Below are positions 10,573 through 34,579 of a DNA stretch of 64,000 bases, piece by piece (the first letter of the stretch is position 1; each line of letters opens with the position of its first letter). Both the position numbers and the translations under genes were made by a program. The stretch spans positions 17 to 64,016 of the forward strand of contig CAISGE010000062.1 in assembly GCA_903884815.1 (NCBI GenBank), in the 5' to 3' direction. The notes beneath the pieces were generated by a model, which was given only the letters and a program-made list of their open reading frames with translations, was not told the DNA's origin and made no database searches. Source of the stretch: Candidatus Omnitrophota bacterium. Its GTDB lineage: Bacteria > Omnitrophota > Omnitrophia > Omnitrophales > Aquincolibacteriaceae.

Positions 10573-11373
10573 ATGAACGAATTTTTAGGAAGTATCGGTC
10601 AGAGCGTGCTTTTTGTTTTAGCCGGAGTCGCGCGCTTGTGGGCACTGGGAGCCGCGGTCGTCGGCTTCACCCTCCAGTCCTTTTTAAATAAGAAGATTAT
10701 TCCGCGCGAAGTCTTTTTCCGTCAGCTGGTCCTGATTGGCATCGATTCTACGGCGATAGTCTCCCTCGTGGGCGCTTCGGTTGGGACGGTTCTGGCGTTG
10801 CAAGCGGCCTATTCTCTGAAGACCTTTGGGGCGCTCATGTACACAGGAAGCCTTGTGTGCGTGGCCATGGCCCGCGAACTGGGTCCCTTGATCGCCGCGA
10901 TCGTGATCTCTGGCCGCATCGGCGCGCGCATGGCGGCCGAGATCGGTACCATGATGGTCCAGGAAGAAGTGGATGCTCTTACCACCATGGGGATTAATCC
11001 CATCCGGTTTCTCGTCGCGCCGCGTGTTCTCGCGCTGGCCTGCATGCTCCCGTGTCTGACGGTCATCGTGGATATTGTGGGGATGATCGGGGGTTGGGCG
11101 ATCGGCGTGACAGGTCTCGGCATCAATTCTACTCTTTATATCGCGAAGAGTATCGAGGCGCTTTGTCTCAAAGATATCTATACCGGTCTTCTGAAGAGTA
11201 TTATTTTCAGCATTCTTATCGCGCTGGTGAGTTGCCATCAGGGGCTTTCGGTTTCGGGTGGCGCGGACGCGGTGGGGAAAGCCACCACGCAGGCGGTCGT
11301 GATCTCGATCGTGTTGATCATTGTGGTGGACTGTTTGGCGACGGCGGTTATTTATTACGCCTTGCCCACGTAA
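10573..11373 (+). CDS. mlaE: Mla/Ttg2-type ABC transporter permease
   Basis: Multi-TM protein with MlaE family motifs (ARELGPLIAAIVISGRIGARMAAEIGTMMVQEEVDAL); start at the ATG at 10573. Confidence 0.85.
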   Translation: MNEFLGSIGQSVLFVLAGVARLWALGAAVVGFTLQSFLNKKIIPREVFFRQLVLIGIDSTAIVSLVGASVGTVLALQAAYSLKTFGALMYTGSLVCVAMARELGPLIAAIVISGRIGARMAAEIGTMMVQEEVDALTTMGINPIRFLVAPRVLALACMLPCLTVIVDIVGMIGGWAIGVTGLGINSTLYIAKSIEALCLKDIYTGLLKSIIFSILIALVSCHQGLSVSGGADAVGKATTQAVVISIVLIIVVDCLATAVIYYALPT

Positions 11374-11380
11374 GGAATTT

Positions 11381-12187
11381 ATGAGCGAATCAGAACCGCA
11401 CGTTATTGAAATCAGGGATCTCGTTAAACGTTTCGGGGATTTGACCGTTCTGAACGGTATCAATGTCAAGATCCCGCGCGGCAAGATCACGGTCATTATG
11501 GGCGGTTCGGGGTGCGGCAAGACGACTTTTTTAAGGCATCTGATCGCTTTGCACCAGCCCACTTCCGGGGAGATCCTGGTGGATGGCAAGAACACCGTCG
11601 GACTCAATGAAAAGGATATGAACGAAGTGCGGCGCAAGTTTGGCATGCTCTTCCAGGGGTCGGCACTTTTTAATTCTATGACTGTCGGGGAAAATGTCGC
11701 GGTGCCCCTTAAGGAACACACTGATCTTTCCCGGGAGATCATTCGCATAATCGTTCGCGTAAAACTTGAGCTCGTGGGGCTTACGGGATTTGAGGATTTT
11801 ATGCCCCACCAGATCTCGGGCGGTATGAAAAAACGCGTGGCACTTGCCCGGGCGATCGCGCTCGACCCGAAGATCGTTTTCTATGATGAGCCGGGCGCGG
11901 GTTTGGACCCGATCACCGCGAGCATGATCGACCGGTTGATTCTGGACCTTAGCAAAAAACTTAATATCACTTCGGTTGTCGTTTCCCATGAAATGAAAAG
12001 CGCGTTTAGGATCGCGGACCAGATCATTGTTCTTCATAAAGGGAAAGTGCTGCAGGTCGGCTCGGCTGATGAGATCAAGAATTCAAAAGATTCGTATGTG
12101 CAGCAGTTTATTCAGGGAGAATCTGAAGGCGTTATTCCGTTCAAGCAAACCAGCGAAGCCTATTTGAAAGGGCTTCTCTCTACTTAA
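11381..12187 (+). CDS. mlaF: Mla/Ttg2-type ABC transporter ATP-binding protein
   Basis: Walker A (GGSGCGKTT), ABC signature (ISGGMKKRVALARA) and Walker B (VFYDEPGAGLD). Confidence 0.88.
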   Translation: MSESEPHVIEIRDLVKRFGDLTVLNGINVKIPRGKITVIMGGSGCGKTTFLRHLIALHQPTSGEILVDGKNTVGLNEKDMNEVRRKFGMLFQGSALFNSMTVGENVAVPLKEHTDLSREIIRIIVRVKLELVGLTGFEDFMPHQISGGMKKRVALARAIALDPKIVFYDEPGAGLDPITASMIDRLILDLSKKLNITSVVVSHEMKSAFRIADQIIVLHKGKVLQVGSADEIKNSKDSYVQQFIQGESEGVIPFKQTSEAYLKGLLST

Positions 12188-12208
12188 GCGTTTTCCGAGG
12201 AGGAAAAG

Positions 12209-12844
12209 ATGGATTCATCAAAGTCTTATTCGTCATCCGAGATCAAATCCGGATTTTTTGTGTTGGTCGCGCTTGTGATGCTTTTGGTGCTCACCTTCGT
12301 GGTCGGAGGCTATTTTAAGAAAGGGGCCAACGAATGGAAGGTCCAGTTCGGCTACCTGAGCGGTTTGAGCGACAGTGCTCCCGTTTATTATGCGGGGCGT
12401 GAAGTGGGCAAGGTGGACAGTATTCAGATCCTTCGTGGAAGTAATCGGCCTGTGCTCGTGACGATCAAGGTTTCCAACGATGCCTACGTCCGCCAGGACA
12501 GTGTGGCGTATATCGATACGCTCGGGATGATGGGGGAGAAGTTCATCGAGATCTCTGTCGGTTCAAAGGATGCGCCGCCCCTGGAAGCCGGTAAAGTGAT
12601 CGAGGGCGTGGACCCGATCCCGATGCATGTTCTGATCCGAAAAATGAACCTTTTGGCAGACGAAGTCGAAACGATGACAGTGAGCCTCAACCCGCTCTTG
12701 AAGAACGTCAATGACGTGGTAGCTGGGAATAAGGAAGAGATCTCCAAGAGTCTCACGAATCTTCATGAAGTTTCCGCGAACCTACGGGATATGACCGCCG
12801 ATCTCAAGCTCCATCCGTGGCGCCTGGTTCGCAAAGGTTCTTAA
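12209..12844 (+). CDS. mlaD: MCE-domain substrate-binding protein
   Basis: N-terminal TM anchor followed by an MCE domain; operon position after mlaE and mlaF. Confidence 0.75.
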   Translation: MDSSKSYSSSEIKSGFFVLVALVMLLVLTFVVGGYFKKGANEWKVQFGYLSGLSDSAPVYYAGREVGKVDSIQILRGSNRPVLVTIKVSNDAYVRQDSVAYIDTLGMMGEKFIEISVGSKDAPPLEAGKVIEGVDPIPMHVLIRKMNLLADEVETMTVSLNPLLKNVNDVVAGNKEEISKSLTNLHEVSANLRDMTADLKLHPWRLVRKGS

Positions 12845-12853
12845 GGGAGTTCT

Positions 12854-13192
12854 ATGCGCTTAAAGACGGCGATTTTGCTCATTCTTTGTTCTCTTGTCGG
12901 GGCTCCTTTCGTTGTTGCGGAAGGAACGGTCGGGGATTATATGTATGGGATCGGGACAAAATTCGGGCGCGGCCTTGAAAATGTGGTGACCAGCCTCGCG
13001 GAAGTCCCTTGTACGGTTCACACCGAGATGAAAGATCAAGGGGGCTCCGGATTTTTTCCGGGACTCGGCAAAGGAACTCTTTTTATGTTGCGTCGGATGC
13101 TCGTCGGCGTGACCGAAGTCGGTACTTTTTTCATCCCCATGGAGCGGACGATTCCCCGAGTCTGCCAGGAAACCAAGCCTTCGGTGGTCTGA
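12854..13192 (+). CDS. Small secreted hypothetical protein (signal peptide)
   Basis: Signal-peptide-like N-terminus (MRLKTAILLILCSLVGAPFVVA) and an RBS; no recognised domain. Confidence 0.4.
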   Translation: MRLKTAILLILCSLVGAPFVVAEGTVGDYMYGIGTKFGRGLENVVTSLAEVPCTVHTEMKDQGGSGFFPGLGKGTLFMLRRMLVGVTEVGTFFIPMERTIPRVCQETKPSVV

Positions 13193-13304
13193 CGCGATCG
13201 GTCGCGTGCCTCAGGAAATTTTTGCGGGAATTTTATGGATTGCCGCTTGACGCTGGCGCGCAGGTCTTCCTATAATAGCCCGTCACTTAACTGAAGGAGA
13301 AATA

Positions 13305-13646
13305 ATGACTCTAAATGAGAAAGCTGTCGCACCCAAGGACCCCGAGGTCCAGGACGCGCAGTTCTTTGCGGCGATCGGCTATTTGAGTTTTCTTTGTTTT
13401 GTACCGCTTGCGCTCAAGCGTGAGAACAAGTTTGCACTTTTTCACGGGAAACAGGCCTTGGTTCTTTTTATTATGGAACTGGCCGCGGCGATCCTGAAGG
13501 TGGTGCCGGCCTTAGGGGATCTCGTGTTCACTTTGGCGTTCGTGGTGTTTGGGATCCTTTCTCTTATCGGGATCGTGAAGGTGCTGATGGGAGAACGCTG
13601 GGAGATCCCGGTGGTGAGTGAGATCGCCGAGAGGATCACCTTCTAA
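13305..13646 (+). CDS. Small integral membrane protein (DUF4870-like)
   Basis: Strong AGGAG RBS and two to three TM helices; resembles the short conserved membrane-protein family DUF4870. Confidence 0.45.
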   Translation: MTLNEKAVAPKDPEVQDAQFFAAIGYLSFLCFVPLALKRENKFALFHGKQALVLFIMELAAAILKVVPALGDLVFTLAFVVFGILSLIGIVKVLMGERWEIPVVSEIAERITF

Positions 13647-13791
13647 TACTGTTCTCAATTTGATTTTATGGATTAATTGTGCTGTGCCGCATACCCGTAA
13701 TATCAATTGTCATGTGGTTCTAGAAGTGGTGCTATTTATACCGCAGTACGCCGTGTCCTTTTCTTTCAATCAGAGACCCTGAGGGGTTGGC

Positions 13792-15363
13792 ATGCTTACT
13801 GGTACTAAAAAAGTTCAGCCGGGTGGGCAAGACTGGTTTGTGGTCCTGAACCCCCTCAAGAGCGAATTGGAACGCAATAAGATCGCCCGCGAGATCGCCA
13901 AGGCTTTTGGTCTTCCCGTGGATGAAGCGTTCGATCTTGTAGCCAATACCCCCATTATCCTGATCGACAATCTTCTTTACGCGACAGCGCTTCAGATAAA
14001 ACAGTATTTCCGCAACTCTCAGACGGATATCGCGGTCAGTAACGATAGCCTCCTGAAGAGGCGCTGCTACCGGACCGTGTGGCCCACATCCCCGAGCCTT
14101 GCTTTTCTCCATCATATGGAAGCCTCGACTCCTTCGGCAAAAGCAAATGAGTCGGAAAAGCTCGATCACGCCGAGGCAATTCAAGAGATACGTTCCTGGG
14201 TGCAGACCGAGGGCGTTTCTCCAGAGGGTGCCGAGAGGCATTCTTCCCAGAACGGCAGGAGTCATCACGCTCCGCGTCATTTCCGGAGTATCCTCGAAGA
14301 TGATCAGGAAAGACTGCTCAAGGAGAGCGTGGGAATGAAGGAAAGTATGGGGCAACTCCGCAAGGCTCTGGAGAAAGCCCAGGAGGAAGTTGCGGAAAAG
14401 GAGAAGGCCGTGCGGGCCAGTGAGATCGCGAAAACGCAGAAAGAAAAGGAAGTTCAGGAGCTTCACAATCTGGTGGCTCATGCGGAAGAAAAATACGAAC
14501 TTCTTCGGGAAGAATTCCGGGAGACCCGCCAGTACTTCGAGGAGAAGCTTGGTTCCCAGGATCAGAAATCGGAGGAGTTCCTGAAGCAGATCGAAGAACG
14601 TGATCTCGCCCAAAAGGAGATCTTGCAGGAGAAGCAGGCCCTTCTGAAAAGTTTTCACGCTGTGAAAAGCGATCTTCAACGTGCGAAGGATGAGCAAGAG
14701 CAGTCGCGTCGCGAATGGGAGAGCCAGGCGTCCCAGTTTCGAAGAGAACTTGAAAATCATAAGACCGTTGTGGAGAGCCTTCACGCCAAGATCCAGAATC
14801 TGGAGGAAGGCAAGAAGATCGTGCAATCGAGTGAAACTCGTTTGCTCCAGGAATTAGAGCTTCAGACCCAGCAGGCCAAGCAGTGGGAGCAGAAATCCTC
14901 CGAGTTTGAAAAGGAGATCCGGCGGCTCCGCGGCTCATTTGAGGATCAGCAGAAGACCTGGCAAGTGCGTCTCGCGCAGCTTGAGGCCCGGGAGATGGAT
15001 CTTGAGAATGCGCGAAAGCAGATCCGTGAGCTTTATACAGAATTGGACCAGCGTGAGGCTGTGCAGAAAAAGGCACAGCTGCAGGAGCAACTGGCTTCCT
15101 GGGAGTTGCGGCTCAAGCAGGTGGTGAAGCATCAGGAAAGGATCGAGTCCGAGATCCGTGAGCGCGAAGAGGAAATGCGCAAGCTTCTTGAGGAGCAGGA
15201 GAAGATCGAGAGGGAAGTGATCGAAGGCAAACAGGCCCAGCGACACCTTGCTGAAAAAATCAAACATGAAGGTCCTCACGGAGAGCCGCAAAAGCCCGAA
15301 AAAAACGCCGATTCTTCCGCCCTTCATCCTTCTCAGTCGCGGCCCGAGGTTGTGGATGATTGA
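13792..15363 (+). CDS. Long coiled-coil protein with a ~110-aa globular N-terminal domain (possibly ribosomal L7/L12-CTD-like fold)
   Basis: About 400 aa of heptad-rich E/K/Q/R sequence follow an N-terminal domain (FVVLNPLKSELERNKIAREIAKAFGLPVDEAFDLV). The antisense 364-aa ORF is leucine-rich, as expected opposite a coiled coil. Confidence 0.5.
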   Translation: MLTGTKKVQPGGQDWFVVLNPLKSELERNKIAREIAKAFGLPVDEAFDLVANTPIILIDNLLYATALQIKQYFRNSQTDIAVSNDSLLKRRCYRTVWPTSPSLAFLHHMEASTPSAKANESEKLDHAEAIQEIRSWVQTEGVSPEGAERHSSQNGRSHHAPRHFRSILEDDQERLLKESVGMKESMGQLRKALEKAQEEVAEKEKAVRASEIAKTQKEKEVQELHNLVAHAEEKYELLREEFRETRQYFEEKLGSQDQKSEEFLKQIEERDLAQKEILQEKQALLKSFHAVKSDLQRAKDEQEQSRREWESQASQFRRELENHKTVVESLHAKIQNLEEGKKIVQSSETRLLQELELQTQQAKQWEQKSSEFEKEIRRLRGSFEDQQKTWQVRLAQLEAREMDLENARKQIRELYTELDQREAVQKKAQLQEQLASWELRLKQVVKHQERIESEIREREEEMRKLLEEQEKIEREVIEGKQAQRHLAEKIKHEGPHGEPQKPEKNADSSALHPSQSRPEVVDD

Positions 15364-23856: not shown

Positions 23857-24806
23857 TCGGACTTCTGGTCATTTTCTTTTTGTCGGTGGTCGTTTCAGCG
23901 TTTTTTTCCGCGGCCGAAATGGCGTTTGTTTCCGCGAACAAGCTGAGGCTCCGGGAAATGGCCGATGCGGGTGATAAAAAAGCCCGGTTCATCATGCAAC
24001 TCCAACAGCATCCCAATTATTTCCTGACAGCGCTCCTGATCGGAAACAATGGCGTGAACGTTCTCGCGATCTCCATCGCGACCTGCATTTTTAAGAAATA
24101 TCTCGGGTGGAATAGTGAGTGGCTTGTGATGCTGCTCATCGCCCCGATCCTCATTATCTTCGCGGAGATGGCACCTAAGGATTATGGCCGTTTGAATGCT
24201 ATTTCTTTTCTACGCGGAAAAACATTTTGGATCCGATGGCTCAAGGCCGTCCTCTATGGACCCATCATTTTGTTCTTCAGGATTCTGGGTTTCTTTTGGC
24301 CGTCTTTTCAGCAAGGCCAGGTCCGTGATATTTTCGTCAATGAAGAGGAATTCCGTTCCCTGATCGAGGAAAGCTCTCACCGAGGCATCGTGGGCCCCCA
24401 AGAGCAGAAGTTGATCCACACGATCCTTGATTTCGAGCGTATCCAGGTGCAGTCCGTGATGTTGCCCCTCGGGAAGGTCCCGATGGTGGATATCCACAGT
24501 AAGATCGAAGATGTCAAGCGTATCGCCCGGGAAACCCAGTCCCGCATGATGCTTGTTTATGAGGAGATCCCTTCGATCGTTATGGGGATGGTCTATGTTT
24601 TCGATATTCTGTGGGAGGAAGAGAATGCGCGTGGTCTTCACGACTTTCTCCGTGCGCCGATCTTTATCCCTGAAGAAACGTCCCTGGAAAAAGCCTTCCT
24701 GCTGCTGCAGAAAAAACGCCAATCCTACGCCGTAGTGACGGATCGGGCGGGGGATATCAAAGGGGTTGTTCCCATAGAGCGGCTTCTTATATTTGAAAAG
24801 CACTGA
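23853..24806 (+). CDS. Second CNNM-like protein (DUF21 + CBS pair, lacks CorC C-terminus)
   Basis: GTG start overlapping the upstream TGA, AGGAGG RBS, DUF21 motif (SAAEMAFVS) and a CBS pair; tandem paralogue. Confidence 0.7.
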   Translation: MIGLLVIFFLSVVVSAFFSAAEMAFVSANKLRLREMADAGDKKARFIMQLQQHPNYFLTALLIGNNGVNVLAISIATCIFKKYLGWNSEWLVMLLIAPILIIFAEMAPKDYGRLNAISFLRGKTFWIRWLKAVLYGPIILFFRILGFFWPSFQQGQVRDIFVNEEEFRSLIEESSHRGIVGPQEQKLIHTILDFERIQVQSVMLPLGKVPMVDIHSKIEDVKRIARETQSRMMLVYEEIPSIVMGMVYVFDILWEEENARGLHDFLRAPIFIPEETSLEKAFLLLQKKRQSYAVVTDRAGDIKGVVPIERLLIFEKH

Positions 24807-25020
24807 CCGAAACCTTTCTTTCTCTCGCGATCGTTTTTTAGTCCGATAATATCGGCCTTCCTCGAAGTTCTTACTAAAGAGAGCTTCTTTTTATTCAGAC
24901 TTCCGCAAATGTTGGATTCCATTAGTCCGATTTCTACTATAGCGATTCATTACTATAAAGCTTTACTAAGACAAGCCGTTACATTACAGGCAAATCTTTT
25001 AATTCAAGGAGACGATCTTT

Positions 25021-26121
25021 TTGAGAATTATCGCCATCGCGAATCAAAAAGGCGGATGTGGAAAGACTACGACCAGCATTAATTTCTCGGCTTGTCTGAA
25101 TTTTCTTCAGAAGAAAGTGCTCGTGGTCGATCTGGATCCGCAGGGGCATTCCACTTGTGGGTTGGGTGTCAAAACTCAGAGGGGCATGCTGACCCTTTAT
25201 GACCTTTTGAGTCCTCTTCAGAGCGTGACGCCTTCTCTTTCCCAGGTCATCCAAAACCTTCGGACGGATTTTGATCTCCTTCCTTGTAACGCAAGCCTGA
25301 ACGCGATCGAAGAAGAATTCGGGTTTATGCCCAATTATCACCTTAAGCTTCGGGATCTTCTGGCCAGGATTTCTGAAGACCCTCGCCGATACGATTTTGT
25401 GGTGCTGGATTGTCCTCCGAATCTTGGCATGCTCACCTGGAACGCTCTGAATGCGGCCGATGAGATCATTGTTCCCGTGGAGCCCTCCTTTTTTTCGCTG
25501 CATGGCCTCGCCAAGATCTCGGAGACTCTTCAGATCGTGAATCGAAGCCGGGAGACGCCTTTGGCGGTTCACGCGCTTCTGACGCTTTTTAACTCCGAGG
25601 TGAATTTCTCCCATGAAATCTACGATGAAGTTCGCGCCCACTTCAAAGACAGGCTCTTTACAACGATCATTCACGAACATGTCAGTCTCAAAGAGGCCGC
25701 CGCGGCGGGGCAGAGTATTGTTCAGTATGGGCCACAATCACAAGCCTTTCAGGACTACCTGAATCTGGCGGTGGAATATCTGGAACGGGACTGGAATCGC
25801 AAACTCCCGGAAAAGGAGTTGGGTTGGGAGCAGGTTTATCAAAACCATTTTGGGCCGCGGCAGGTTTCGGACGGGATCCTCTTTCAGTTTTTGAGCAAGA
25901 CAGCGTCGTCTGTGGAGATCGCCGGGGATTTTAATCATTGGGTCGCAGAGCCTCTCTTGCGGCGCAATCAAGACGGGCTTTGGCAGAAGGTTATTCCGGT
26001 GGAGCCTAAAACGTTTCGATATAAGTTTATCGTGGATGGGGAGTGGCAGGTTGATCCTAGTCAACCCATGCAGCGAGAAAATGCTTATGGCGGCGTTGAT
26101 TCTTACGTGGAGTTATCCTGA
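25021..26121 (+). CDS. ParA/Soj-family P-loop ATPase fused to a C-terminal AMPK-beta-type glycogen-binding domain (CBM48)
   Basis: TTG start with an AGGAG RBS. Deviant Walker A (NQKGGCGKTTTSINFSACL) and Walker B (VLDCPPNL). The C-terminal ~85 aa (VEIAGDFNHW...YKFIVDGEWQVDPSQP) align closely to the AMPK beta GBD/CBM48 (SGSFNNW...YKFFVDGQWTHDPSEP). Confidence 0.8.
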   Translation: MRIIAIANQKGGCGKTTTSINFSACLNFLQKKVLVVDLDPQGHSTCGLGVKTQRGMLTLYDLLSPLQSVTPSLSQVIQNLRTDFDLLPCNASLNAIEEEFGFMPNYHLKLRDLLARISEDPRRYDFVVLDCPPNLGMLTWNALNAADEIIVPVEPSFFSLHGLAKISETLQIVNRSRETPLAVHALLTLFNSEVNFSHEIYDEVRAHFKDRLFTTIIHEHVSLKEAAAAGQSIVQYGPQSQAFQDYLNLAVEYLERDWNRKLPEKELGWEQVYQNHFGPRQVSDGILFQFLSKTASSVEIAGDFNHWVAEPLLRRNQDGLWQKVIPVEPKTFRYKFIVDGEWQVDPSQPMQRENAYGGVDSYVELS

Positions 26122-26933
26122 TGAATGAGGATGCGAAAAAATTGGTGCGTGGGCTGAAGGATCTTTCGCCGCTTTTCGGTGTTGTCCCTGAAGAAGTTGT
26201 AGCCCGCAGATCTCCGGAAGTTCAAATTTTAGGGGTCTCAAGCCCGGACTGTGAAGGCGATTCTTTGTTCCTTAACACATTTTTTGCTTCGCAGCTCCTT
26301 CTGTCGGAGAAAGCCTGCTCTCTGGTCAGCGTTTTATCCCGGTGTTCCAAGAATTTGCCAAGGGAGGGAGAAGTTTCTCCTGAATTGTTCGGGGAGCACC
26401 TTCAGCGCTACTCCCTTTATTGGGATGAGCTCCGAGATCTTGTAGGGGGGGCTTCCTCGGGAAAATCGGGGGGGGTGTTGCAGAGTCGGGATATTTTTTT
26501 GGATTTTGAGTACCGGCATTTGCTCCACTTTGAGGGGGCCATTTGTCTTCTGGATAAGTGGGTTCTACTTTTGAAGCCGAACGCTGAATCTCTGACTGAG
26601 GGTTATAAAATGATGAAGGTTGGGCATTCCCTTAATCCGCAGCTTGAGTTTTGTATCGTATTGGAAGGGAGGGCTGAGGAGGCGAAAGGGGAGATGCTCT
26701 TTAAAAGATTCTCGGATTTCACTATGAGGTATCTTGATATTCAGTTGGGTTGGCTTGGTTGGATGGATCTTGCGGACCCCGCCCGTCATTTCTCGTCAGC
26801 GCTCCATGTGGAGCCTCTGCGCTTTCGATCCTGGGACCCGAAGCCCAGCTTGCAAAAGTTTGTCCTCGCCCATTGGGTTGAATCCCTAGAGAAGAAGATG
26901 GCTGTTGGAATTTCCGAGGGGGGCTCGCGATGA
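26121..26933 (+). CDS. Hypothetical protein, possibly a degenerate ParA/MinD-fold pseudo-ATPase
   Basis: Translationally coupled to the upstream gene (ATGA overlap). The N-terminal segment ILGVSSPDCEGDS sits where a Walker A would be but lacks lysines; assignment is tentative. Confidence 0.4.
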   Translation: MNEDAKKLVRGLKDLSPLFGVVPEEVVARRSPEVQILGVSSPDCEGDSLFLNTFFASQLLLSEKACSLVSVLSRCSKNLPREGEVSPELFGEHLQRYSLYWDELRDLVGGASSGKSGGVLQSRDIFLDFEYRHLLHFEGAICLLDKWVLLLKPNAESLTEGYKMMKVGHSLNPQLEFCIVLEGRAEEAKGEMLFKRFSDFTMRYLDIQLGWLGWMDLADPARHFSSALHVEPLRFRSWDPKPSLQKFVLAHWVESLEKKMAVGISEGGSR

Positions 26934-27466
26934 TCGCCGCCCCCGAACGCATTTTTCGCCAGGAGATCTTTCAATCGATCCGCTCCTCCATCCAGGAACT
27001 TCATGCGGATAAAGTGATCCTTGAGGACGTGAATGGAGCCCCCTACCTCTTTAAAAGCAAAGATGCGCAGGTTTGGGCGCGGATTTTTTACAGGTCCATG
27101 CGGGATTATTCCCTTGTGGAACTTCAGCAGGAGATCAGGAAGCTCTGGGTGCTAATGCCGAGTAGTGCGGTACTCTATCTTTTTTATCCAGAATTGGACC
27201 GTCAGCAGATCCTCAAAATGAACGGCTTTAGCGATCGTTTGAGTTTTTTTGAATATGCGGGACTTTCTGGCGTGGCGCATGAACAGAGGGACATCAAAAT
27301 CTGTAAGTGGATGCCCTCCTGGATTCAAGAGGGGATTTCCCCTCGAGAGGGTGTGGTTGCTCCTCTGGTGCCGGTTTCGCCCGCCAGCTTTTTGAGAATT
27401 TCTTGTCTGACACCGCAGGAGATCCAGGGCCTTACGGAGTTGTCTTTGGCTTTATCCCGGGTCTGA
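26930..27466 (+). CDS. Hypothetical protein
   Basis: Translationally coupled (ATGA); no recognised domain. Confidence 0.4.
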   Translation: MIAAPERIFRQEIFQSIRSSIQELHADKVILEDVNGAPYLFKSKDAQVWARIFYRSMRDYSLVELQQEIRKLWVLMPSSAVLYLFYPELDRQQILKMNGFSDRLSFFEYAGLSGVAHEQRDIKICKWMPSWIQEGISPREGVVAPLVPVSPASFLRISCLTPQEIQGLTELSLALSRV

Positions 27467-27538
27467 AGCTACACGTGAAGGGTTTTTATATTTCGTTCTT
27501 GATGGTGCCTCCCAACTCTTCTATAATCACCCCCACTT

Positions 27539-28255
27539 ATGACAAGCTCAATTATCCAGAATCTTGATACCCTCAAAAAAGCCCAGCGCTTGGACAGTGA
27601 GATTCATCAAGCCCAAGGTCTCCTGGAAGAGATTCCTGCAAAGCGAGCCAAGCTCAAAGCTGAAATGGAATTCGAGAAAGGGCGTCTGCATGAGCTTGAA
27701 AAATCCCTCAAGGATATTCAGGTGAAGTTGAAGGACCGGGAATTGGAGCTTTCTCAAAAAGAAAATCAGATCAAGAAACTTGACGGGCAACTCTCGCAGG
27801 TAAAAACGAATAAGGAATACGCCGCGTTGCAGCAGGAAGTCGCTTCTCTCAAAGCCGACAACTCTCTTCTCGAGGAGGGGATCATTCATATTTTGGATGA
27901 AGTCGATGCTGCCAAAGACGAGACTCGGAAGGAGAAAGAGAAGCTTGCTCTTATTACAAAATCCTTTCAGGAAAAAGACGATGCGTTGGCCGGTCAGGAA
28001 AAGACCTTGCAGATTCGCCTTGCTGAGATGAAGAAGCAACGCGACGAAGCAGTCGTCCAGTTACCTCTCGAACTCGGAGAGCTCTATCAAAGGATTGCTT
28101 TCAAAAAACAAGGGCTTGCGCTGGCGGCTGTAAATGGTGAAAATTGCGCGGCCTGTCAGATGAATTTGCGTCCGCAGCTTCTTAACGAAATACGGCTAGG
28201 GGAACAGATCATTGTTTGCGAGAATTGCTCCCGCATTCTCTATTACGAAGCTTAG
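27539..28255 (+). CDS. Coiled-coil protein with C-terminal C4 zinc ribbon (zf-RING_7/DUF164-like)
   Basis: About 190 aa of coiled coil followed by C..C-(17)-C..C (CAACQMNL...CENCSRILY). Confidence 0.6.
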   Translation: MTSSIIQNLDTLKKAQRLDSEIHQAQGLLEEIPAKRAKLKAEMEFEKGRLHELEKSLKDIQVKLKDRELELSQKENQIKKLDGQLSQVKTNKEYAALQQEVASLKADNSLLEEGIIHILDEVDAAKDETRKEKEKLALITKSFQEKDDALAGQEKTLQIRLAEMKKQRDEAVVQLPLELGELYQRIAFKKQGLALAAVNGENCAACQMNLRPQLLNEIRLGEQIIVCENCSRILYYEA

Positions 28256-28416
28256 TTTTCCCTCCCTTCCCGGAGTTGCTCCAAAGATTTCCTCTTAACC
28301 AGTCCGTTCTTTAGGTATTTGCTTTCCCCTATAGACGTTTTCCCGACTTAGCTCAAAACCCCCCTTGGGTCTTTCTGCCCGGCCGTCTTTTTCCGAATTC
28401 CCTGAAAAAAAGAATA

Positions 28417-28445
28417 TTGACAGGGTATTAAGGTAAAGATATACT
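28417..28445 (+). promoter_or_regulatory. Pmra-like sigma70 promoter (TTGACA-17-TATACT) upstream of mraZ
   Basis: Exact -35 hexamer, 17-nt spacer and a TATACT -10, about 60 nt upstream of mraZ. Confidence 0.6.
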
Positions 28446-28460
28446 GCCGCCGATAATAAA

Positions 28461-28485
28461 GTGGGAGGAAGTGGGAGATAGTGGT
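28461..28485 (+). promoter_or_regulatory. MraZ operator: three direct GTGG(G/T) repeats at 10-bp periodicity
   Basis: GTGGGaggaaGTGGGagataGTGGTagata between the promoter and the mraZ start, matching the known MraZ box architecture in E. coli and B. subtilis. Confidence 0.55.
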
Positions 28486-28508
28486 AGATAAGAAAGGAGT
28501 AGGAATCC

Positions 28509-28946
28509 ATGTTTTACGGTGAGTTTGAACATGTGATCGATACGAAAAGCCGCGTGATGATCCCCGCGAAATTCCGCGAGATCTTCAAGGAGCGCTATGC
28601 AGAGCGCTTTTTTATCACCCGCGGTCTCGATCAGTGCTTATTTGTTTTCACCGAGGAACAGTGGAAGACGGAAGAGAAAAAGTTTCGCGACATGCCTTTC
28701 ACCAAAGCCGAATCCAGAACCTTCAATCGTCTTTTCTTTTCAGGAGCTTGTGAAGTGGTGTGTGACAAACAGGGGAGAATTCTCATTCCGGATTATCTGA
28801 AGAGCTATGCGGAGATCAAGGCGGATGTCACGATCGTGGGCGTTTCAAGTCGTATAGAAATTTGGGCGAAAGAAAAGTGGCAGGGATTTTTCGATCATCA
28901 TAAAGGTCATTTTGAAGAACTCGCGGAAAAATTAGTCGCAGAATAG
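28509..28946 (+). CDS. mraZ: Transcriptional regulator MraZ
   Basis: Duplicated MraZ (DUF-UPF0040) halves (IDTKSRVMIPAKFRE and CDKQGRILIPDYLK). Confidence 0.9.
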   Translation: MFYGEFEHVIDTKSRVMIPAKFREIFKERYAERFFITRGLDQCLFVFTEEQWKTEEKKFRDMPFTKAESRTFNRLFFSGACEVVCDKQGRILIPDYLKSYAEIKADVTIVGVSSRIEIWAKEKWQGFFDHHKGHFEELAEKLVAE

Positions 28947-28959
28947 AAAAGGAGTCATT

Positions 28960-29298
28960 ATGGTCTATCACGCCAGAACGAAGAGTGCCGTGGATGTATT
29001 GCGTTTCAATGGGGACCTTGATGCGCTAAGCATGATCAAAATGAAAGATCGGATGAACCGTTTAATGAACAGGAACCACAAGCGTCTTTTGTTGGACCTG
29101 AAAGATACGAAGCACGTGGAATTAGCAGGCGTCGGTATCTTGGTCGATCGTCTGCGTAAAGTGCGCGAACAAAAAGGGGACATCAAACTTTGCAATCTGC
29201 GTCCCGAAGTTGAGAAGACTTTCCAAATGATCGGGGTCAATGGCTTGATGGAAAGTTATTCGACGGAAGAAGAGGCGATCCTTAGTTTTGCGTCATAG
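28960..29298 (+). CDS. STAS-domain protein (anti-sigma-antagonist-like, non-phosphorylatable) inserted between mraZ and rsmH
   Basis: STAS fold with a strong RBS; the usual DSSG phospho-site is replaced by ELAGVGIL. Confidence 0.6.
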   Translation: MVYHARTKSAVDVLRFNGDLDALSMIKMKDRMNRLMNRNHKRLLLDLKDTKHVELAGVGILVDRLRKVREQKGDIKLCNLRPEVEKTFQMIGVNGLMESYSTEEEAILSFAS

Positions 29299-30588: not shown

Positions 30589-32343
30589 ATGCGAGCGTTG
30601 CTTTCGCCGCGTCGGTTCTGGTTTCTCTACATCGTTTTCTTTGTTATTTTCGGTCTCATCATCTATCAGATCACCCAGTTGACTTGTTTTCATCAAGCCT
30701 CCCTTCTTAAGCTGGCGCACCGCCAACATAATCTGACGATTGATACACCCTCTTTGCGCGGACCGATCACGGATCGCAACGGGAATGAGTTCGTTACCAA
30801 TCTCAAGATTCCGTCCATATATGCAGTGCCACGCGCAGTCGCAGAGGAAGACCTTCCGGGGCTCAGCCGTGAGATTGCCAAGATCTTGAAGGTTGATCCA
30901 AAGTGGGTGAAGGACCGCTTAGCGCGCGATAAATCGTTTGTGTGGCTCAAGCGGCGCGTGACTTTTGAGGAATCAGAAAAGATTAAAAAACTCGAGTGCC
31001 CCGCGCTCGGAATCCTGGAAGAATATAAGAGATTTTATCCACAAGGGTCCATGCTGGCCCAGGTGCTCGGATTCTCAACGGTGGATAACCAAGGGGTCGA
31101 AGGGCTTGAGCGTTCCATGGATGCGGATCTTCGAGGGAAACCCGGAAAACGAGTCACCCAGCGGGATGCCAAAGGGCGTGAGATCAAGGCCTTTGAGATC
31201 ACGAGCGTGCCCGTGGTCGATGGGAACCGAGTGGTATTGACGATCGATCAGCATCTTCAGTACCTGACCGAGAAATCGCTGGAACAGGCCTTCAAACAGT
31301 GGAAAGCCAAGGGGGCCTGGGCGATCGTGATGGATCCGAATACGGGGGAGATCTTGGCCATGGCGAATCAACCCGGGTTCGATCCTAACCATTACGCGAA
31401 CGTCGGTCCTGACGCCAAGCGTAATCGTGCTGTTACGGATATGTATGAGCCTGGATCGATTTTTAAGATCGTTGCCGCAAGCGGGGGGCTGAATGATGGC
31501 ACGGTGACTCCTGAAACAGTGATCAACTGCGAGAACGGAAAATGGAATTATGGCTTTAAGACGCTCCATGACGTTCATCCGTATGGCATGTTGCCCATGA
31601 TGGAAGTGATCGTGAAATCCAGCAACATCGGGACCGTGAAGATCGCGCTTAAAATGGGGGCCCAACAATTTCAGAGTTACGTGACGGGCTTCGGCTTCGG
31701 AGCGCTGACCGGGATCGACCTTGCCGGCGAAGCGCCGGGTTTCACGCGGCCGCCTTCTCAATGGTCCAAGACCTCTCCGTATAATATCCCGATGGGCCAG
31801 GAAGTTATGGTGACGGCTCTCCAAATGGTGACGGCGATGTCTGTGATCGCGAATGGGGGGAACCTCGTACGGCCCTATATCGTGTCGCGCGTCGAGGATT
31901 CTGCCGGCGTGATTATTAAGCAGAAAAAGCCCGTGATCAAACGGCGGGTGATCAAGCCAGAAACAGCCGCGACGATGCGGGAGATCCTGACCCAGGTCGT
32001 GGAAAGAGGGACTGGGACGAAAGCGAAGATCCCGGATGTTTTGGTCGCGGGTAAGACGGGTACGGCACAGAAGATTTTGCCCGGGGGCAAGGGCTATTCT
32101 CACACTGCTTTCATGTCTTCTTTCGTTGGTTTCGCGCCTGCGGATAATCCTCGCTATGCCATGGTGGTGGTTCTCGATGAAGCGCGTCCCATGTATTACG
32201 GGGGTGTTGTTGCCGCACCAGTCTTCAAGGAGGTCTTGGGTGCGGCGCTTTTGACGCAGGGAGCTCAACCCTATCATGAGAGTGCGCCGCCCTTGACGAA
32301 GGAGCAGGCTGCGGCGGCGGCCGACCTGGCGGTCGCTGATTGA
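30589..32343 (+). CDS. ftsI: Penicillin-binding protein, class B transpeptidase (FtsI/PBP3-like)
   Basis: PBP dimerisation and transpeptidase domains with SxxK (SIFK), SxN (SSN) and KTGT (KTGTAQ); position in the dcw cluster. Confidence 0.85.
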   Translation: MRALLSPRRFWFLYIVFFVIFGLIIYQITQLTCFHQASLLKLAHRQHNLTIDTPSLRGPITDRNGNEFVTNLKIPSIYAVPRAVAEEDLPGLSREIAKILKVDPKWVKDRLARDKSFVWLKRRVTFEESEKIKKLECPALGILEEYKRFYPQGSMLAQVLGFSTVDNQGVEGLERSMDADLRGKPGKRVTQRDAKGREIKAFEITSVPVVDGNRVVLTIDQHLQYLTEKSLEQAFKQWKAKGAWAIVMDPNTGEILAMANQPGFDPNHYANVGPDAKRNRAVTDMYEPGSIFKIVAASGGLNDGTVTPETVINCENGKWNYGFKTLHDVHPYGMLPMMEVIVKSSNIGTVKIALKMGAQQFQSYVTGFGFGALTGIDLAGEAPGFTRPPSQWSKTSPYNIPMGQEVMVTALQMVTAMSVIANGGNLVRPYIVSRVEDSAGVIIKQKKPVIKRRVIKPETAATMREILTQVVERGTGTKAKIPDVLVAGKTGTAQKILPGGKGYSHTAFMSSFVGFAPADNPRYAMVVVLDEARPMYYGGVVAAPVFKEVLGAALLTQGAQPYHESAPPLTKEQAAAAADLAVAD

Positions 32344-32462
32344 CGCCTTTCATTGTATACTGAACAAGAGAGTGATATAATCCCGGCCGTTTCGGTCCTG
32401 CCCAAGGCGACAAGCTCCATGAAGGGCTGCACCAATTAATAGGAATTTAAGAAGGTGTTATA

Positions 32463-32600
32463 GGGACGTCCCAATTTCATTCTTATAAAATTGAAAATTG
32501 GGACTGTCCCAACGATTCATTAATTTTTTGATTATACGTCGGGGCGTCCTAATTCTCAGTTAACCATGGACGGTGAATGAGGACAGTCCCGATATTCATT
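32463..32600. repeat. Four iterated ~20-bp repeats with a palindromic core GGGAC(N)GTCCC followed by AAYNNTTCATT, spaced about 40 bp apart upstream of tRNA-Pro
   Basis: Copies read directly: GGGACGTCCCAATTTCATT (32463), GGGACTGTCCCAACGATTCATT (32500), GGGGCGTCCTAATTCTCAGTT (32541), GGACAGTCCCGATATTCATT (32581). Confidence 0.7.
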
Positions 32601-32620
32601 GAAAATTTAATTTAAGTTTA

Positions 32621-32698
<78 letters not shown>

Positions 32699-32770
32699 TT
32701 TTTTTTTGCGTTGCAATTGAAAGCCGAAGGCTTTCCATAAAGTGAGACGAAAAAATGGGCAGCACCCGAA

Positions 32771-32800
32771 GTCCCGCCGAAGGCGGGACGGAGTGGTGCG
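32771..32800. repeat. GC-rich palindromic element (gtcccgcc-gaag-ggcgggac-ggagtg), related to the REP-like copies at 44211 and 59387
   Basis: Shares gtcccgcc, ggcggga and ggagtg with the two other copies in this window. Confidence 0.45.
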
Positions 32801-32879
32801 ATTGCTTTAGGCGATTCAACACTTGCACCGATGTGCAAGTGCGATGCCGACGCTCCTCAGAAGAGTCGCGTTCGCATCG

Positions 32880-32894
32880 ATCCTATCGCCCCGA
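32880..32894 (+). repeat. 15-bp perfect direct repeat of the tRNA-Pro 3' end (atcctatcgccccga; first copy 32682-32696)
   Basis: Exact 15/15 duplication 198 bp downstream; both copies are followed by a T-run. Confidence 0.8.
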
Positions 32895-32973
32895 TTCTTT
32901 TTTTAAGTAATATCAATAAAATTCTATCCGGTTTTTTCCGGCCGGTTTCCTTCCGTTAGAGGGCAAGACGCCG

Positions 32974-33168
32974 ATGGATTGCAAGGTCGCGACCAATCGA
33001 AAACGCTGCAATTGCTCTTACGAACCTTGTTCCCGCAAAGGGATCTGCTGCGACTGTGTGGCGTATCACAGGAGCCAGGATGAGTTACCCGCTTGTTATT
33101 TTCCAGACAACGTCGAAAGATCCTACGATCGTTCTATCAAAAAATTTCTATCTCTCCACAAGACGTAA
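32974..33168 (+). CDS. Small cysteine-rich protein (CNC..C..C..CC.C motif; DUF6485-like)
   Basis: 64 aa with an RBS and the conserved pattern [22 protein letters not shown]...LPACYFP...SYDRS, typical of a small conserved family. Confidence 0.5.
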
Positions 33169-33215
33169 ACTCCCATCGCGCGGTCGGTGGCGCGCCTCTG
33201 CTTAAAAAGGATTCG

Positions 33216-33983
33216 ATGGAGCGTAGTAAAAAAAAAGCTATTATTGTCGGAAGTAGTAGCGGGATCGGACGCGCGCTGGCCATCAAATTATCTGCGGAAG
33301 GCTATGTCCTTTGCCTCACCGGCCGGTCGCTGGAGAGACTGGAGGCTCTTCAAAAAGATCTCGCGGGGGAGAGTATCGCGAGACAAGTCGATGTCAGTAA
33401 TCCCCGGGAAGCGATCCATGCGCTCCGGAATGTTATTATGTCTTTGCACGGCCTTGACCTGATGGTGATCAACGCCGGAGTGCTTTTCCAAAATGATAAA
33501 CTTCTGTGGCAACCCGAAGAGGATATGATCAAGGTGAACGTCCTCGGATTCGCGGCTGCGGCGAATGTGGCTGCGGATTATTTTTCACAGAAAGGCGCCG
33601 GCTGTATTATCGGGATCTCTTCGGTGGCTTCTCAAAGTGCCAGCGGACGCTCTCCGGCCTACAACGCCTCCAAGGCTTTTGTCTCGAATTATATGGAAGG
33701 CCTCCGCCAGAAATTTTCGGGTACACCCGTTCGGGTTCTGGACATCCGTCCCGGGTTCGTGGACACGGATATGGTCCGCGGTCGCAAGGGACTTTTCGGG
33801 CTTGTGTCGGCCGAAAGCGCTGCGAGCGATATCTACCGGGCTTTCCAAAAAGGAAAACGCGTCGCGTACGTGCCGTTCTGGTGGGGGATTGTCGCGTGGC
33901 TCTTCAGGCGTTTTCCTGAATCAGTTCGTAACTTGGGATACCGCCGCTATATTGCCTGGGACACAAAACATTCGGTTTCCTGA
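33216..33983 (+). CDS. Short-chain dehydrogenase/reductase (SDR) family oxidoreductase
   Basis: Rossmann motif GSSSGIGRA and catalytic motifs NAG and YNASK; start at the ATG at 33216 with an RBS. Confidence 0.8.
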   Translation: MERSKKKAIIVGSSSGIGRALAIKLSAEGYVLCLTGRSLERLEALQKDLAGESIARQVDVSNPREAIHALRNVIMSLHGLDLMVINAGVLFQNDKLLWQPEEDMIKVNVLGFAAAANVAADYFSQKGAGCIIGISSVASQSASGRSPAYNASKAFVSNYMEGLRQKFSGTPVRVLDIRPGFVDTDMVRGRKGLFGLVSAESAASDIYRAFQKGKRVAYVPFWWGIVAWLFRRFPESVRNLGYRRYIAWDTKHSVS

Positions 33984-33985
33984 CC

Positions 33986-34579
33986 ATGAGGAAATTAAGC
34001 CACCCGGAACTTTTGGCCCGTCAGCAGGTGCGGCAGAAAGAACCGAAGCTGCCATTCTGTGTCGTCCTCAATGATATACGCAGTCTCTACAATGTCGGCT
34101 CGATTTTCAGGACAGCGGATGGCGCCGGCGTTGAAAAATTATGGATCTGCGGCATTACAGGATTCCCACCCGATAACCAGATCTCCAAGACCGCGCTCGG
34201 GGCTGAAAAGGAAGTTCCCTGGGAATACCGTCGGCATGTCTGCGAAATCGTGCGGGAACTGAAAGCCCGGGGCTACCAGATCCTCTTTCTCGAACAACTT
34301 GCCGAAAGTATCCCCTATCAGGATTTCCGCGCCTCCGGCCCCGTGTGTCTGGTTCTCGGCAATGAGATCTCGGGGGTTTCGGAGGAACTGCTCGCGCTTT
34401 GCGACAAAACGATCGAGATCGATATGGCAGGGGCGAAAAACTCCCTGAATGTTTCCGTCGCATTCGGTGTGGTGGCATACCATTTACGCAATCAATTACG
34501 CGGGAAGCGTGATGCGGGGAACGGGGAACGTGGAGACGAAACCGTAACCCGTTCGCCGGTCCCCATTTTCCGGCTTTAG
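33986..34579 (+). CDS. SpoU/TrmH-family RNA 2'-O-methyltransferase
   Basis: SPOUT motifs (NVGSIFRTADGAG, LVLGNEISGVS, NSLNVSVAFGV). Confidence 0.8.
   Translation: MRKLSHPELLARQQVRQKEPKLPFCVVLNDIRSLYNVGSIFRTADGAGVEKLWICGITGFPPDNQISKTALGAEKEVPWEYRRHVCEIVRELKARGYQILFLEQLAESIPYQDFRASGPVCLVLGNEISGVSEELLALCDKTIEIDMAGAKNSLNVSVAFGVVAYHLRNQLRGKRDAGNGERGDETVTRSPVPIFRL

Follow-up and report, generated by a model that had tools for sequence, protein, structure and literature searches.

The window analyzed here is a stretch of 64,000 nucleotides (nt) from a Candidatus Omnitrophota bacterium (NCBI GenBank assembly GCA_903884815.1, contig CAISGE010000062.1, positions 17 to 64,016 of the forward strand), and positions given below count from its first letter unless a related locus (L numbers) is named. 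It contains a run of four genes, termed g1 to g4, the first of which encodes a ParA-type ATPase fused to a glycogen-binding module of the CBM48 family and the second a candidate partner of that ATPase. The open reading frames (ORFs) of all four genes lie where an earlier first-pass annotation of the window had placed them. The features of g1, g2 and g3, which may together form an organizer of glycogen granules, are as follows (aa, amino acids):

25021-26121, forward strand: g1, 366 aa; TTG start codon, with AAGGAG 10 nt 5' of the start
25021-25794, forward strand: N-terminal Soj-type ParA ATPase domain of g1 (aa 1-258), from Pfam and PDB matches
25042-25074, forward strand: deviant Walker A motif of g1, NQKGGCGKTTT (aa 8-18)
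g1 aa 37-41: Walker A' motif, DLDPQ; aa 127-133: Walker B motif, VVLDCPP
25795-25848, forward strand: inter-domain linker of g1 (aa 259-276)
25849-26121, forward strand: C-terminal CBM48 / AMPK-beta-type glycogen-binding module of g1 (aa 277-364), from Pfam and the PDB match to AMPK beta1
26121-26933, forward strand: g2, 270 aa; start overlapping the g1 stop by 1 nt
26136-26177, forward strand: conserved basic N-terminal peptide of g2, KKLVRGLKDLSPLF (aa 6-19)
g2 aa 20-33: disordered linker
26238-26264, forward strand: degenerate P-loop of g2, SSPDCEGDS (aa 40-48), in the MinD/FlhG-fold domain
26930-27466, forward strand: g3, 178 aa; start overlapping g2 by 4 nt

The first-pass annotation had described g1 as a canonical ParA/Soj ATPase with an AMPK-beta/CBM48 C-terminus, and the profile searches it proposed for both termini bear this out. 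Residues 1-232 match the Pfam families AAA_31 (4.5e-48) and CbiA (3.3e-16), and the C-terminus matches both AMPK1_CBM over aa 293-364 (46.3 bits against a cut-off of 26.8; 5e-12) and CBM_48 over aa 277-342 (33.8 bits against a cut-off of 22.4; 4.4e-8). The PDB matches agree: the top relatives of the ATPase are ParA (8ray, 5.6e-50) and Thermus thermophilus Soj (1wcv, 2.9e-42), and those of the C-terminus are the glycogen-binding domains of AMPK beta1 and beta2 at ∼1e-7 (8.7e-8 for beta1), followed by a pullulanase CBM48 and SEX4. With its signature lysine and its Walker A' and B aspartates, g1 is a deviant-Walker-A ATPase of the ParA/MinD type. Residues K10, G11, G12, G14, K15, T16, D37, D39 and D130 are invariant among 48 diverse members of the fusion family; as both lysines (signature and catalytic) and the Walker A' and B motifs are thereby preserved, the enzyme is expected to be active.

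The fusion of the two domains is genuine and not an assembly chimera, a doubt that had been raised beforehand. Both domains were found in 138 of the 150 best 50%-identity representatives recovered by an exhaustive search of 1.84 billion representatives, and CBM48-type Pfam matches were present in all of the 120 protein clusters closest to g1, a few of which are N-terminally truncated. A scan of GTDB with one genome per species gave at least 600 matched stretches; 596 of the 600 listed encode a relative, and both domains were matched in 79 of the best 80, spread over ∼15 phyla. Carriers among these best 80 are Omnitrophota, Planctomycetota, Myxococcota, Desulfobacterota, Bdellovibrionota, Gemmatimonadota, Acidobacteriota, Rokubacteria, Zixibacteria, Eisenbacteria, Krumholzibacteriota, Margulisbacteria, Auribacterota and Spirochaetota, together with one bin labelled Thiohalobacter; Nitrospirota were also found in a cluster look-up of fusion representatives. 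The representatives share the Walker A motif NQKGGCGKTT. Among the 138 with mapped domain boundaries the linker between ATPase and CBM48 is between 9 and 358 aa long, a spread in keeping with an independent module on a tether. These proteins are named 'AAA family ATPase' or 'chromosome partitioning protein' in the source databases. The cluster look-up for ten diverse fusion representatives returned metagenome-derived entries only and no cultured model carrier, and neither a fusion of ParA with CBM48 nor an organization of glycogen that depends on ParA was described in the literature searched, which left out most subscription journals.

A neighbor-joining tree and clustering of neighboring genes divide the fusions into two clades. 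Clade 1, to which the g1 of the window belongs, spans many phyla and is linked to g2. Clade 2 is without g2 and consists of Omnitrophota and of metagenome-assembled genomes (MAGs) labelled Planctomycetales (loci L011, L022, L025, L031, L034, L037, L039-L041, L044-L046, L051, L052, L056, L057, L063, L067, L072, L076 and L083). In 13 loci the clade 2 fusion adjoins a glycoside hydrolase of family GH57 (Pfam 7.8e-63), and a GH57 gene is also present near L018; other recurrent neighbors are a single-pass membrane protein, a DUF4870-like membrane protein and a lysine-rich protein.

The partner gene, g2, matched no Pfam or NCBIfam family, and a word-indexed search returned homologues from Omnitrophota only. 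Its AlphaFold2 model, built from 45 sequences, has a predicted local distance difference test (pLDDT) score of 81 and a predicted TM-score of 0.79, and consists of an N-terminal helix, a disordered stretch (aa 21-28 fall below pLDDT 50) and an alpha/beta core. As modeled, g2 has a MinD/FlhG (SIMIBI) fold, nearest to FlhG/FleN and MinD. The first-pass annotation had seen in g2 a lysine-less P-loop and a possible pseudo-ATPase partner, and had suggested predicting its structure; the fold obtained, with SSPDCEGDS at the position of the P-loop, agrees with a pseudo-ATPase in the lineage of the window, where D47 and S48 of this loop are near-invariant. Some homologues elsewhere have a near-canonical MinD-type P-loop (SGKGVRGKT in L032 11089-11946; SGEKIQGKT), retained P-loops being found in L032, L010 (3770-4690) and L013 (3339-4274). 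The g2 family thus appears to descend from a real MinD/FlhG-type ATPase, and its members may be active ATPases in other phyla and pseudo-ATPases only in the Omnitrophota lineage.

The pairing of the two genes is strict. A g2 homologue starts no more than ∼100 nt from the stop codon of the fusion in 38 of the 83 loci, with few exceptions, as judged from an iterated hidden Markov model run on the ORFs of the fetched loci (in an earlier iteration ParA had been drawn into this profile, which no longer happened after removal of the ORFs overlapping ParA); these 38 loci are almost all of the window's clade. In JGI metagenomes, scanned with a profile from the Omnitrophota-only g2 alignment because the broad alignment was too divergent, the CBM48 end of a fusion lay immediately upstream of g2 in 30 of the 30 loci that had enough upstream sequence.

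The most conserved segment of g2 is the basic N-terminal peptide, in which L8, R10, G11, L12, S16 and F19 are invariant and K7, K13 and D14 nearly so. In other phyla the downstream gene begins with the same motif, (K/R)LGRGLx(D/E)(V/I)SH(I/L)FLS, with the variants PRDLxDVLHYFLP in Myxococcota and LSxIxHLFLS in Planctomycetota. Its LGRGL core presumably resembles the N-terminus of ParB/Spo0J that activates Soj; a PDB sequence search with the g2-type peptide returned spurious zinc-finger repeats only. The N-terminal tail of FlhG likewise activates FlhF. Activation of a ParA ATPase by a peptide of its partner is a general principle (PMC7993993), and by this analogy we infer that g2 is the ATPase-activating partner of g1.

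The carbohydrate site of the fused module was compared with that of AMPK beta1, in which W100, K126, W133, L146 and N150 are the residues that we take to contact the sugar in the beta1-cyclodextrin structure. In a HMMER alignment these correspond to W307, K335, W342, Y356 and D360 of g1; three are identical (W100, K126, W133) and two are conservatively replaced (L146 by Tyr, N150 by Asp). The alignment columns of the 138 fusion representatives read as follows:

W307 column: W in 138 of 138
K335 column: R in 77 and K in 57 (134 of 138)
W342 column: W in 133 of 138
Y356 column: F in 54, Y in 43 and L in 10 (107 of 138)
D360 column: N in 99 and D in 30 (129 of 138)

Retention of these columns over so many representatives suggests selection on the ligand site and not on the fold alone, and the CBM48 of g1 can be regarded as a putative glucan-binding module with its contact residues retained. 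The GH57 gene beside clade 2 is the sole genomic tie of the fusion to alpha-glucan metabolism. Glycogen synthesis has been reported to be encoded in Omnitrophota MAGs (PMC8542988). Because the sugar-contact residues are kept and GH57 stands beside the sister clade, glycogen is a plausible cargo.

In Bacillus subtilis Soj, R189 and R218 serve non-specific DNA binding (PMC3778016). Outside the window's subclade the first of these positions is Arg in 75 of 77 loci and the second is Lys or Arg, so that most of the fusion family looks nucleoid-binding. The equivalents in the g1 of the window are E193 (25597-25599) and S222 (25684-25686), and in the 116 close homologues from Omnitrophota, R occupies the first position 39 times, E 37 times and Q 23 times, with mostly L, S or A at the second; in the window's lineage the nucleoid-binding property has probably been relaxed or lost.

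Taken together, these features suggest that g1, g2 and g3 form a ParA/MinD-type organizer of glycogen granules, in which g1 would bind the glucan by its CBM48 and g2 would trigger ATP hydrolysis; we put the probability of this reading at about one half. The ParA-CBM48 protein would dimerize on ATP through its deviant Walker A motif, each dimer thereby carrying two CBM48 modules on flexible linkers, and these would grip glycogen particles by the W307/K335/W342/Y356/D360 site. The N-terminal peptide of g2, short and basic, would be displayed on a disordered tether, and through it g2 would stimulate hydrolysis of ATP by g1, comparable to the tails of ParB, MinE, McdB and PomX and to the tail of FlhG acting on FlhF. 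Repeated cycles of ATP-dependent attachment and g2-triggered release could then distribute, tether or partition the granules. In most of the family the nucleoid probably serves as the matrix, because the equivalents of the two Soj arginines are kept there; in the window's lineage (E193/S222) contact with the matrix would have to be weaker or to be supplied by g2 or g3, the latter being possibly DNA-binding.

Several observations weigh against this reading. In canonical ParA systems the ATPase sits on the matrix and the partner on the cargo, whereas g1 would be tied permanently to its cargo. Both basic residues of Soj are replaced in the g1 of the window, by E193 and S222, and a nucleoid-ratchet model is therefore not simply transferable to it. 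No glycogen enzyme was found among 30 large ORFs scanned in the window, nor among the 25 most frequent neighbor families near g2-linked fusions, and in a Pfam scan of 131 ORFs neighboring the g2-linked clade (within ∼4-5 kb; half of the neighbors of the clade) no family occurred more than three times. The g2 and ParA-CBM48 families showed no similarity in a profile comparison with hhalign (probability ∼0.1%), so that the fold assignment of g2 rests on the predicted structure.

The broader claim that this is a widespread machine for positioning or partitioning glycogen, composed of a ParA-CBM48 fusion, an FlhG-like activator and a nuclease-fold protein in ∼15 phyla, and the first ParA/MinD system with a polysaccharide as its cargo, in which the ATPase rides on the cargo and the partner triggers release, is put forward tentatively, at somewhat less than even odds. 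ParA/MinD ATPases are the main known means by which bacteria place large objects without cytoskeletal motors, and their known cargos are chromosomes, plasmids, carboxysomes, chemoreceptor arrays, flagella and the divisome. To our knowledge, no mechanism has been described for the distribution of glycogen granules at cell division. The fusion and its dedicated partner, conserved from Omnitrophota to Myxococcota and Planctomycetota, offer a concrete candidate for granule organization, and if the reading is correct bacteria actively position or partition their glycogen stores. The compact 'motor plus cargo tag' design would also be of interest for synthetic spatial organization, and the lineage-by-lineage retention or loss of the DNA-binding arginines of the ATPase and of the P-loop of the partner makes a ready-made series in which to follow changes of matrix and activator.

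The third gene, g3, matched no Pfam family and has homologues in Omnitrophota only. Its model (pLDDT 72) bears a weak likeness to the restriction-endonuclease-like fold (PD-(D/E)xK, NucS-like); a canonical D...(D/E)xK catalytic motif was not recognized among its invariant residues. In other phyla a gene of 190-270 aa often lies 3' of g2, and a NucS-like pattern, xIDLLAVDxxGxxV, was seen in it by eye. These third genes had no Pfam match, and since their comparison with g3 by hhalign was not significant, it is unproven that the third genes of different phyla are homologous. Our guess is that g3 is a DNA-binding or scaffolding accessory.

Downstream of g3 the following features were identified:

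27539-28255, forward strand: g4, 238 aa, CT398/HP0958-type
g4 aa 16-187: coiled-coil hairpin; aa 203-234: C4 zinc ribbon
28365-28382, forward strand: terminator-like hairpin between g4 and mraZ (consensus scan)
28417-28445, forward strand: strong sigma-70-like promoter TTGACA-17-TATACT ahead of mraZ (consensus scan)
28509-28946, forward strand: mraZ, an ORF; MraZ Pfam match on the syntenic gene of L001

The g4 protein had been described as a long coiled coil ending in a C4 zinc ribbon, and it indeed passes the cut-offs of both corresponding Pfam families, Zn_ribbon_9 (PF02591; 45.1 bits, cut-off 29.1) and CT398_CC (PF24481; 38.2 bits, cut-off 27); against the NCBIfam model CdsZ (NF047363) it scores 76.7 bits, below the cut-off of 275. 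The first-pass annotation had further taken g2, g3 and g4 to be translationally coupled behind g1. This holds for g1/g2 (1-nt overlap) and g2/g3 (4-nt overlap) but not for g4, which follows a gap of 72 nt with a sigma-70-like site at 27499-27527 (consensus scan). Nor is a single functional unit of four genes supported. A g4 gene is present in 22 of the 24 Omnitrophota loci of the window's clade, and the order g1-g2-g3-g4-mraZ is well kept in the window's Omnitrophota lineage, with mraZ in place in 16 of 18 loci; g4 is absent from L003, and neither g4 nor mraZ is near the fusion in any other phylum. What is conserved across phyla is the pair g1-g2, in most cases followed by a small third gene. 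The division cluster thus lies next to these genes by lineage synteny, which is no evidence of function, and the hairpin and promoter at 28365-28445 probably mark the boundary between the g1-g4 cluster and the division-cluster genes.

Behind mraZ come a STAS-domain gene, rsmH, ftsL and ftsI. The STAS-domain gene (28960-29298; anti-sigma-factor-antagonist type) is an unusual member of the head of a division cluster and occupies the same place, between mraZ and rsmH, in L001, L006, L084 and L085. The cluster ends after ftsI, where a short-chain dehydrogenase and a SpoU methylase follow instead of murE, murF and mraY (30589-34579). In L003 a segment at 10927-14800 with Fic, an AAA_14/DUF4143 ATPase and a Gp49/HTH (helix-turn-helix) toxin-antitoxin-like pair replaces the g4-mraZ segment, which suggests a hotspot of insertion or rearrangement directly after g3. 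The synteny obg-proB-proA-nadD-CNNM ... mraZ is kept across divergent relatives. Elsewhere the window carries housekeeping genes of the chromosome, namely riboflavin and Mla genes, proBA, nadD, ligA, an xerC/D-type recombinase gene, purine synthesis genes, murA and mreB-PBP2, as well as two large ORFs (9-4301, 1430 aa; 13792-15363, 523 aa) without a Pfam family at E <= 1e-5.

Short repeats in the leader upstream of g1 had been proposed as a centromere-like site. The repeats exist, including TTAGTCCGAT twice. In 2000 dinucleotide shuffles they did not exceed expectation (longest repeat of at least 10, P 0.08; repeated 8-mers, P 0.13; overall P 0.08-0.2), and a cross-species alignment showed that 'agtccgat' is not conserved in the leaders of relatives; the centromere-like role was rejected on both counts. 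A different element is conserved:

24956-24981, forward strand: conserved leader element TAAAGCTTTAC..AAGCCGTTA, aligned with L003, L004 and L006

Its sequence, AAGCTTTAnnAAGnnAAGCCGTTA, is found at the same position in these three relatives (59-88% protein identity; L003 7917-7940, L004 1833-1856, L006 9914-9937) and includes a perfect 10-bp palindrome, TAAAGCTTTA, at 24956-24965. The pattern AAGCTTTANNAAGNNAAGCCGTTA occurs once in the window and once in each of the three loci, 40-60 nt 5' of the ParA start. Being single-copy, the element looks like a promoter or operator and not like an iterated centromere, and it probably has that function for the operon. Rfam gave nothing in 24600-28700.

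Further observations concern relatives of the fusion. Among the best matches of g1 are giant proteins (P0236, 1812 aa; P0300; P0351; P0369) with 6-17 tandem AMPK-beta-type CBM48 modules, and P0300 and P0369 have a hydrophobic, signal-peptide-like N-terminus. The neighbors of clade 2 also include an alginate-export-like porin. A clade 2 membrane protein of 190 aa has a highly conserved cytoplasmic N-terminus, M(T/D)(R/K)xEIYEHLAK(I/V)YL followed by a poly-Lys run, which may be the ParA-interacting peptide of that clade. The clade 2 lysine-rich protein (∼140 aa), encoded 3' of the fusion (e.g. L040 11514-11936, L031 11458-11856), has a histone-H1-like basic N-terminal half and a conserved C-terminal motif, GxITHYFPHVxAAVIKLKxPL, and matches no Pfam family.

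Glycogen could act as a signal instead of a cargo, with the CBM48 reporting the state of the store as in AMPK and switching the ParA, and so coupling the reserve to the cell cycle or to division. The AMPK-beta type of the module (it matches AMPK1_CBM best in Pfam and AMPK beta best in the PDB) is in keeping with such a role, as are the position of the cluster directly 5' of mraZ (16 of 18 loci in the window's lineage) and the lack of linked glycogen enzymes among the 131 neighboring ORFs scanned for the window's clade. We nevertheless consider it unlikely: the adjacency to mraZ is found in one Omnitrophota lineage only, the 40-fold variation in linker length argues against a fixed allosteric contact between CBM48 and ATPase, and no output domain was identified.

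The location of the cluster could also point to positioning of the division site or divisome in the manner of MinD, MipZ or PomZ, the CBM48 being merely an anchor. The order of g1-g4 directly 5' of mraZ-STAS-rsmH-ftsL-ftsI is conserved within the lineage, and the nearest folds to g2 are FlhG/FleN and MinD. However, the g1-g2 pair occurs in unrelated contexts in L003 and in every other phylum, a terminator-like and a separate promoter-like site intervene between g4 and mraZ, and MinC, MinE and an FtsZ-interacting domain are lacking, as is a membrane-targeting helix at the C-terminus of g1, all of which makes a role at the divisome improbable.

The beta-sandwich of the module might be blind to sugar and serve protein contacts or oligomerization, for example by docking g2 or g3. 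CBM48 modules of some enzymes are non-binding, and the absence of linked glycogen genes among the neighbors scanned for the window's clade would fit. Against this, conservation over the whole family extends beyond the fold core to the Trp, Lys, Trp and Asn that make the ligand contacts in AMPK beta, and we give the idea only a small chance.

Chances are slimmer still that g1 is the ordinary chromosome-partitioning ParA (Soj) of the organism with a decorative extra domain, as the name 'chromosome partitioning protein' in the source databases and the chromosomal ParA/Soj proteins that are its nearest solved relatives would have it. No ParB motif was found adjacent to g1, elsewhere in the window or in any of the 83 loci; in place of ParB, g2 is the dedicated partner encoded downstream; the match to the NCBIfam model ParA_partition (112 bits) lies below the cut-off of 180; and the equivalents of R189 and R218, required for DNA binding by Soj, are gone from the g1 of the window (PMC3778016). 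Finally, a defense or mobile-element module pairing an ATPase with a nuclease-fold protein, to which the weak nuclease-like fold of g3 and the mobile-type genes (Fic, Gp49/HTH) behind the trio in L003 might be thought to point, is hardly credible given that PADLOC returned no meaningful match for g1-g3, that the housekeeping synteny is conserved across divergent relatives and that no catalytic nuclease motif was recognized in g3.

The glycogen-granule organizer proposed here can be set beside several known systems. With ParABS (Soj-Spo0J) it shares a small Soj-type ParA and a partner whose basic N-terminal peptide has an (L)GRGL-like core; it differs in having neither ParB, parS nor a helix-turn-helix partner, in the carbohydrate module on g1 and in the MinD/FlhG fold modeled for g2. 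In McdAB, PpfA/TlpT and PomXYZ, too, a ParA-type ATPase is dedicated to a large cytoplasmic non-DNA cargo and is adjoined by a small, lineage-variable partner that acts by a charged N-terminal peptide. In those systems, however, the ATPase is bound to the nucleoid and the cargo is held by the partner, whereas g1 has its cargo module fused to the ATPase, and no polysaccharide cargo of a ParA system was found in the literature searched. Unlike FlhF-FlhG, FleN-FleQ and MinD-MinE, the system has no flagellar or FlhF context, and the P-loop lysines of g2 are replaced (SSPDCEGDS) in the window's lineage, which rules out a conventional ATPase there.

For g4, which carries both Pfam domains of CT398 (CdsZ) and HP0958 (FlgZ), the resemblance is limited by a score below the CdsZ equivalog cut-off and by the lack of any type III secretion, flagellar or rpoN gene nearby. 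PhaM joins granules of a storage polymer to the nucleoid and thereby lets the daughter cells share them. This precedent from poly(3-hydroxybutyrate) granules is a functional analogy only, since PhaM is not a ParA ATPase and has no sequence relationship to g1. The CBM48 modules of AMPK beta, SEX4 and pullulanase belong to a kinase scaffold, a phosphatase and a hydrolase, whereas that of g1 is carried by a P-loop positioning ATPase. We regard the finding as a ParA/MinD system in which both the cargo module, fused directly to the ATPase, and the kind of partner are new.

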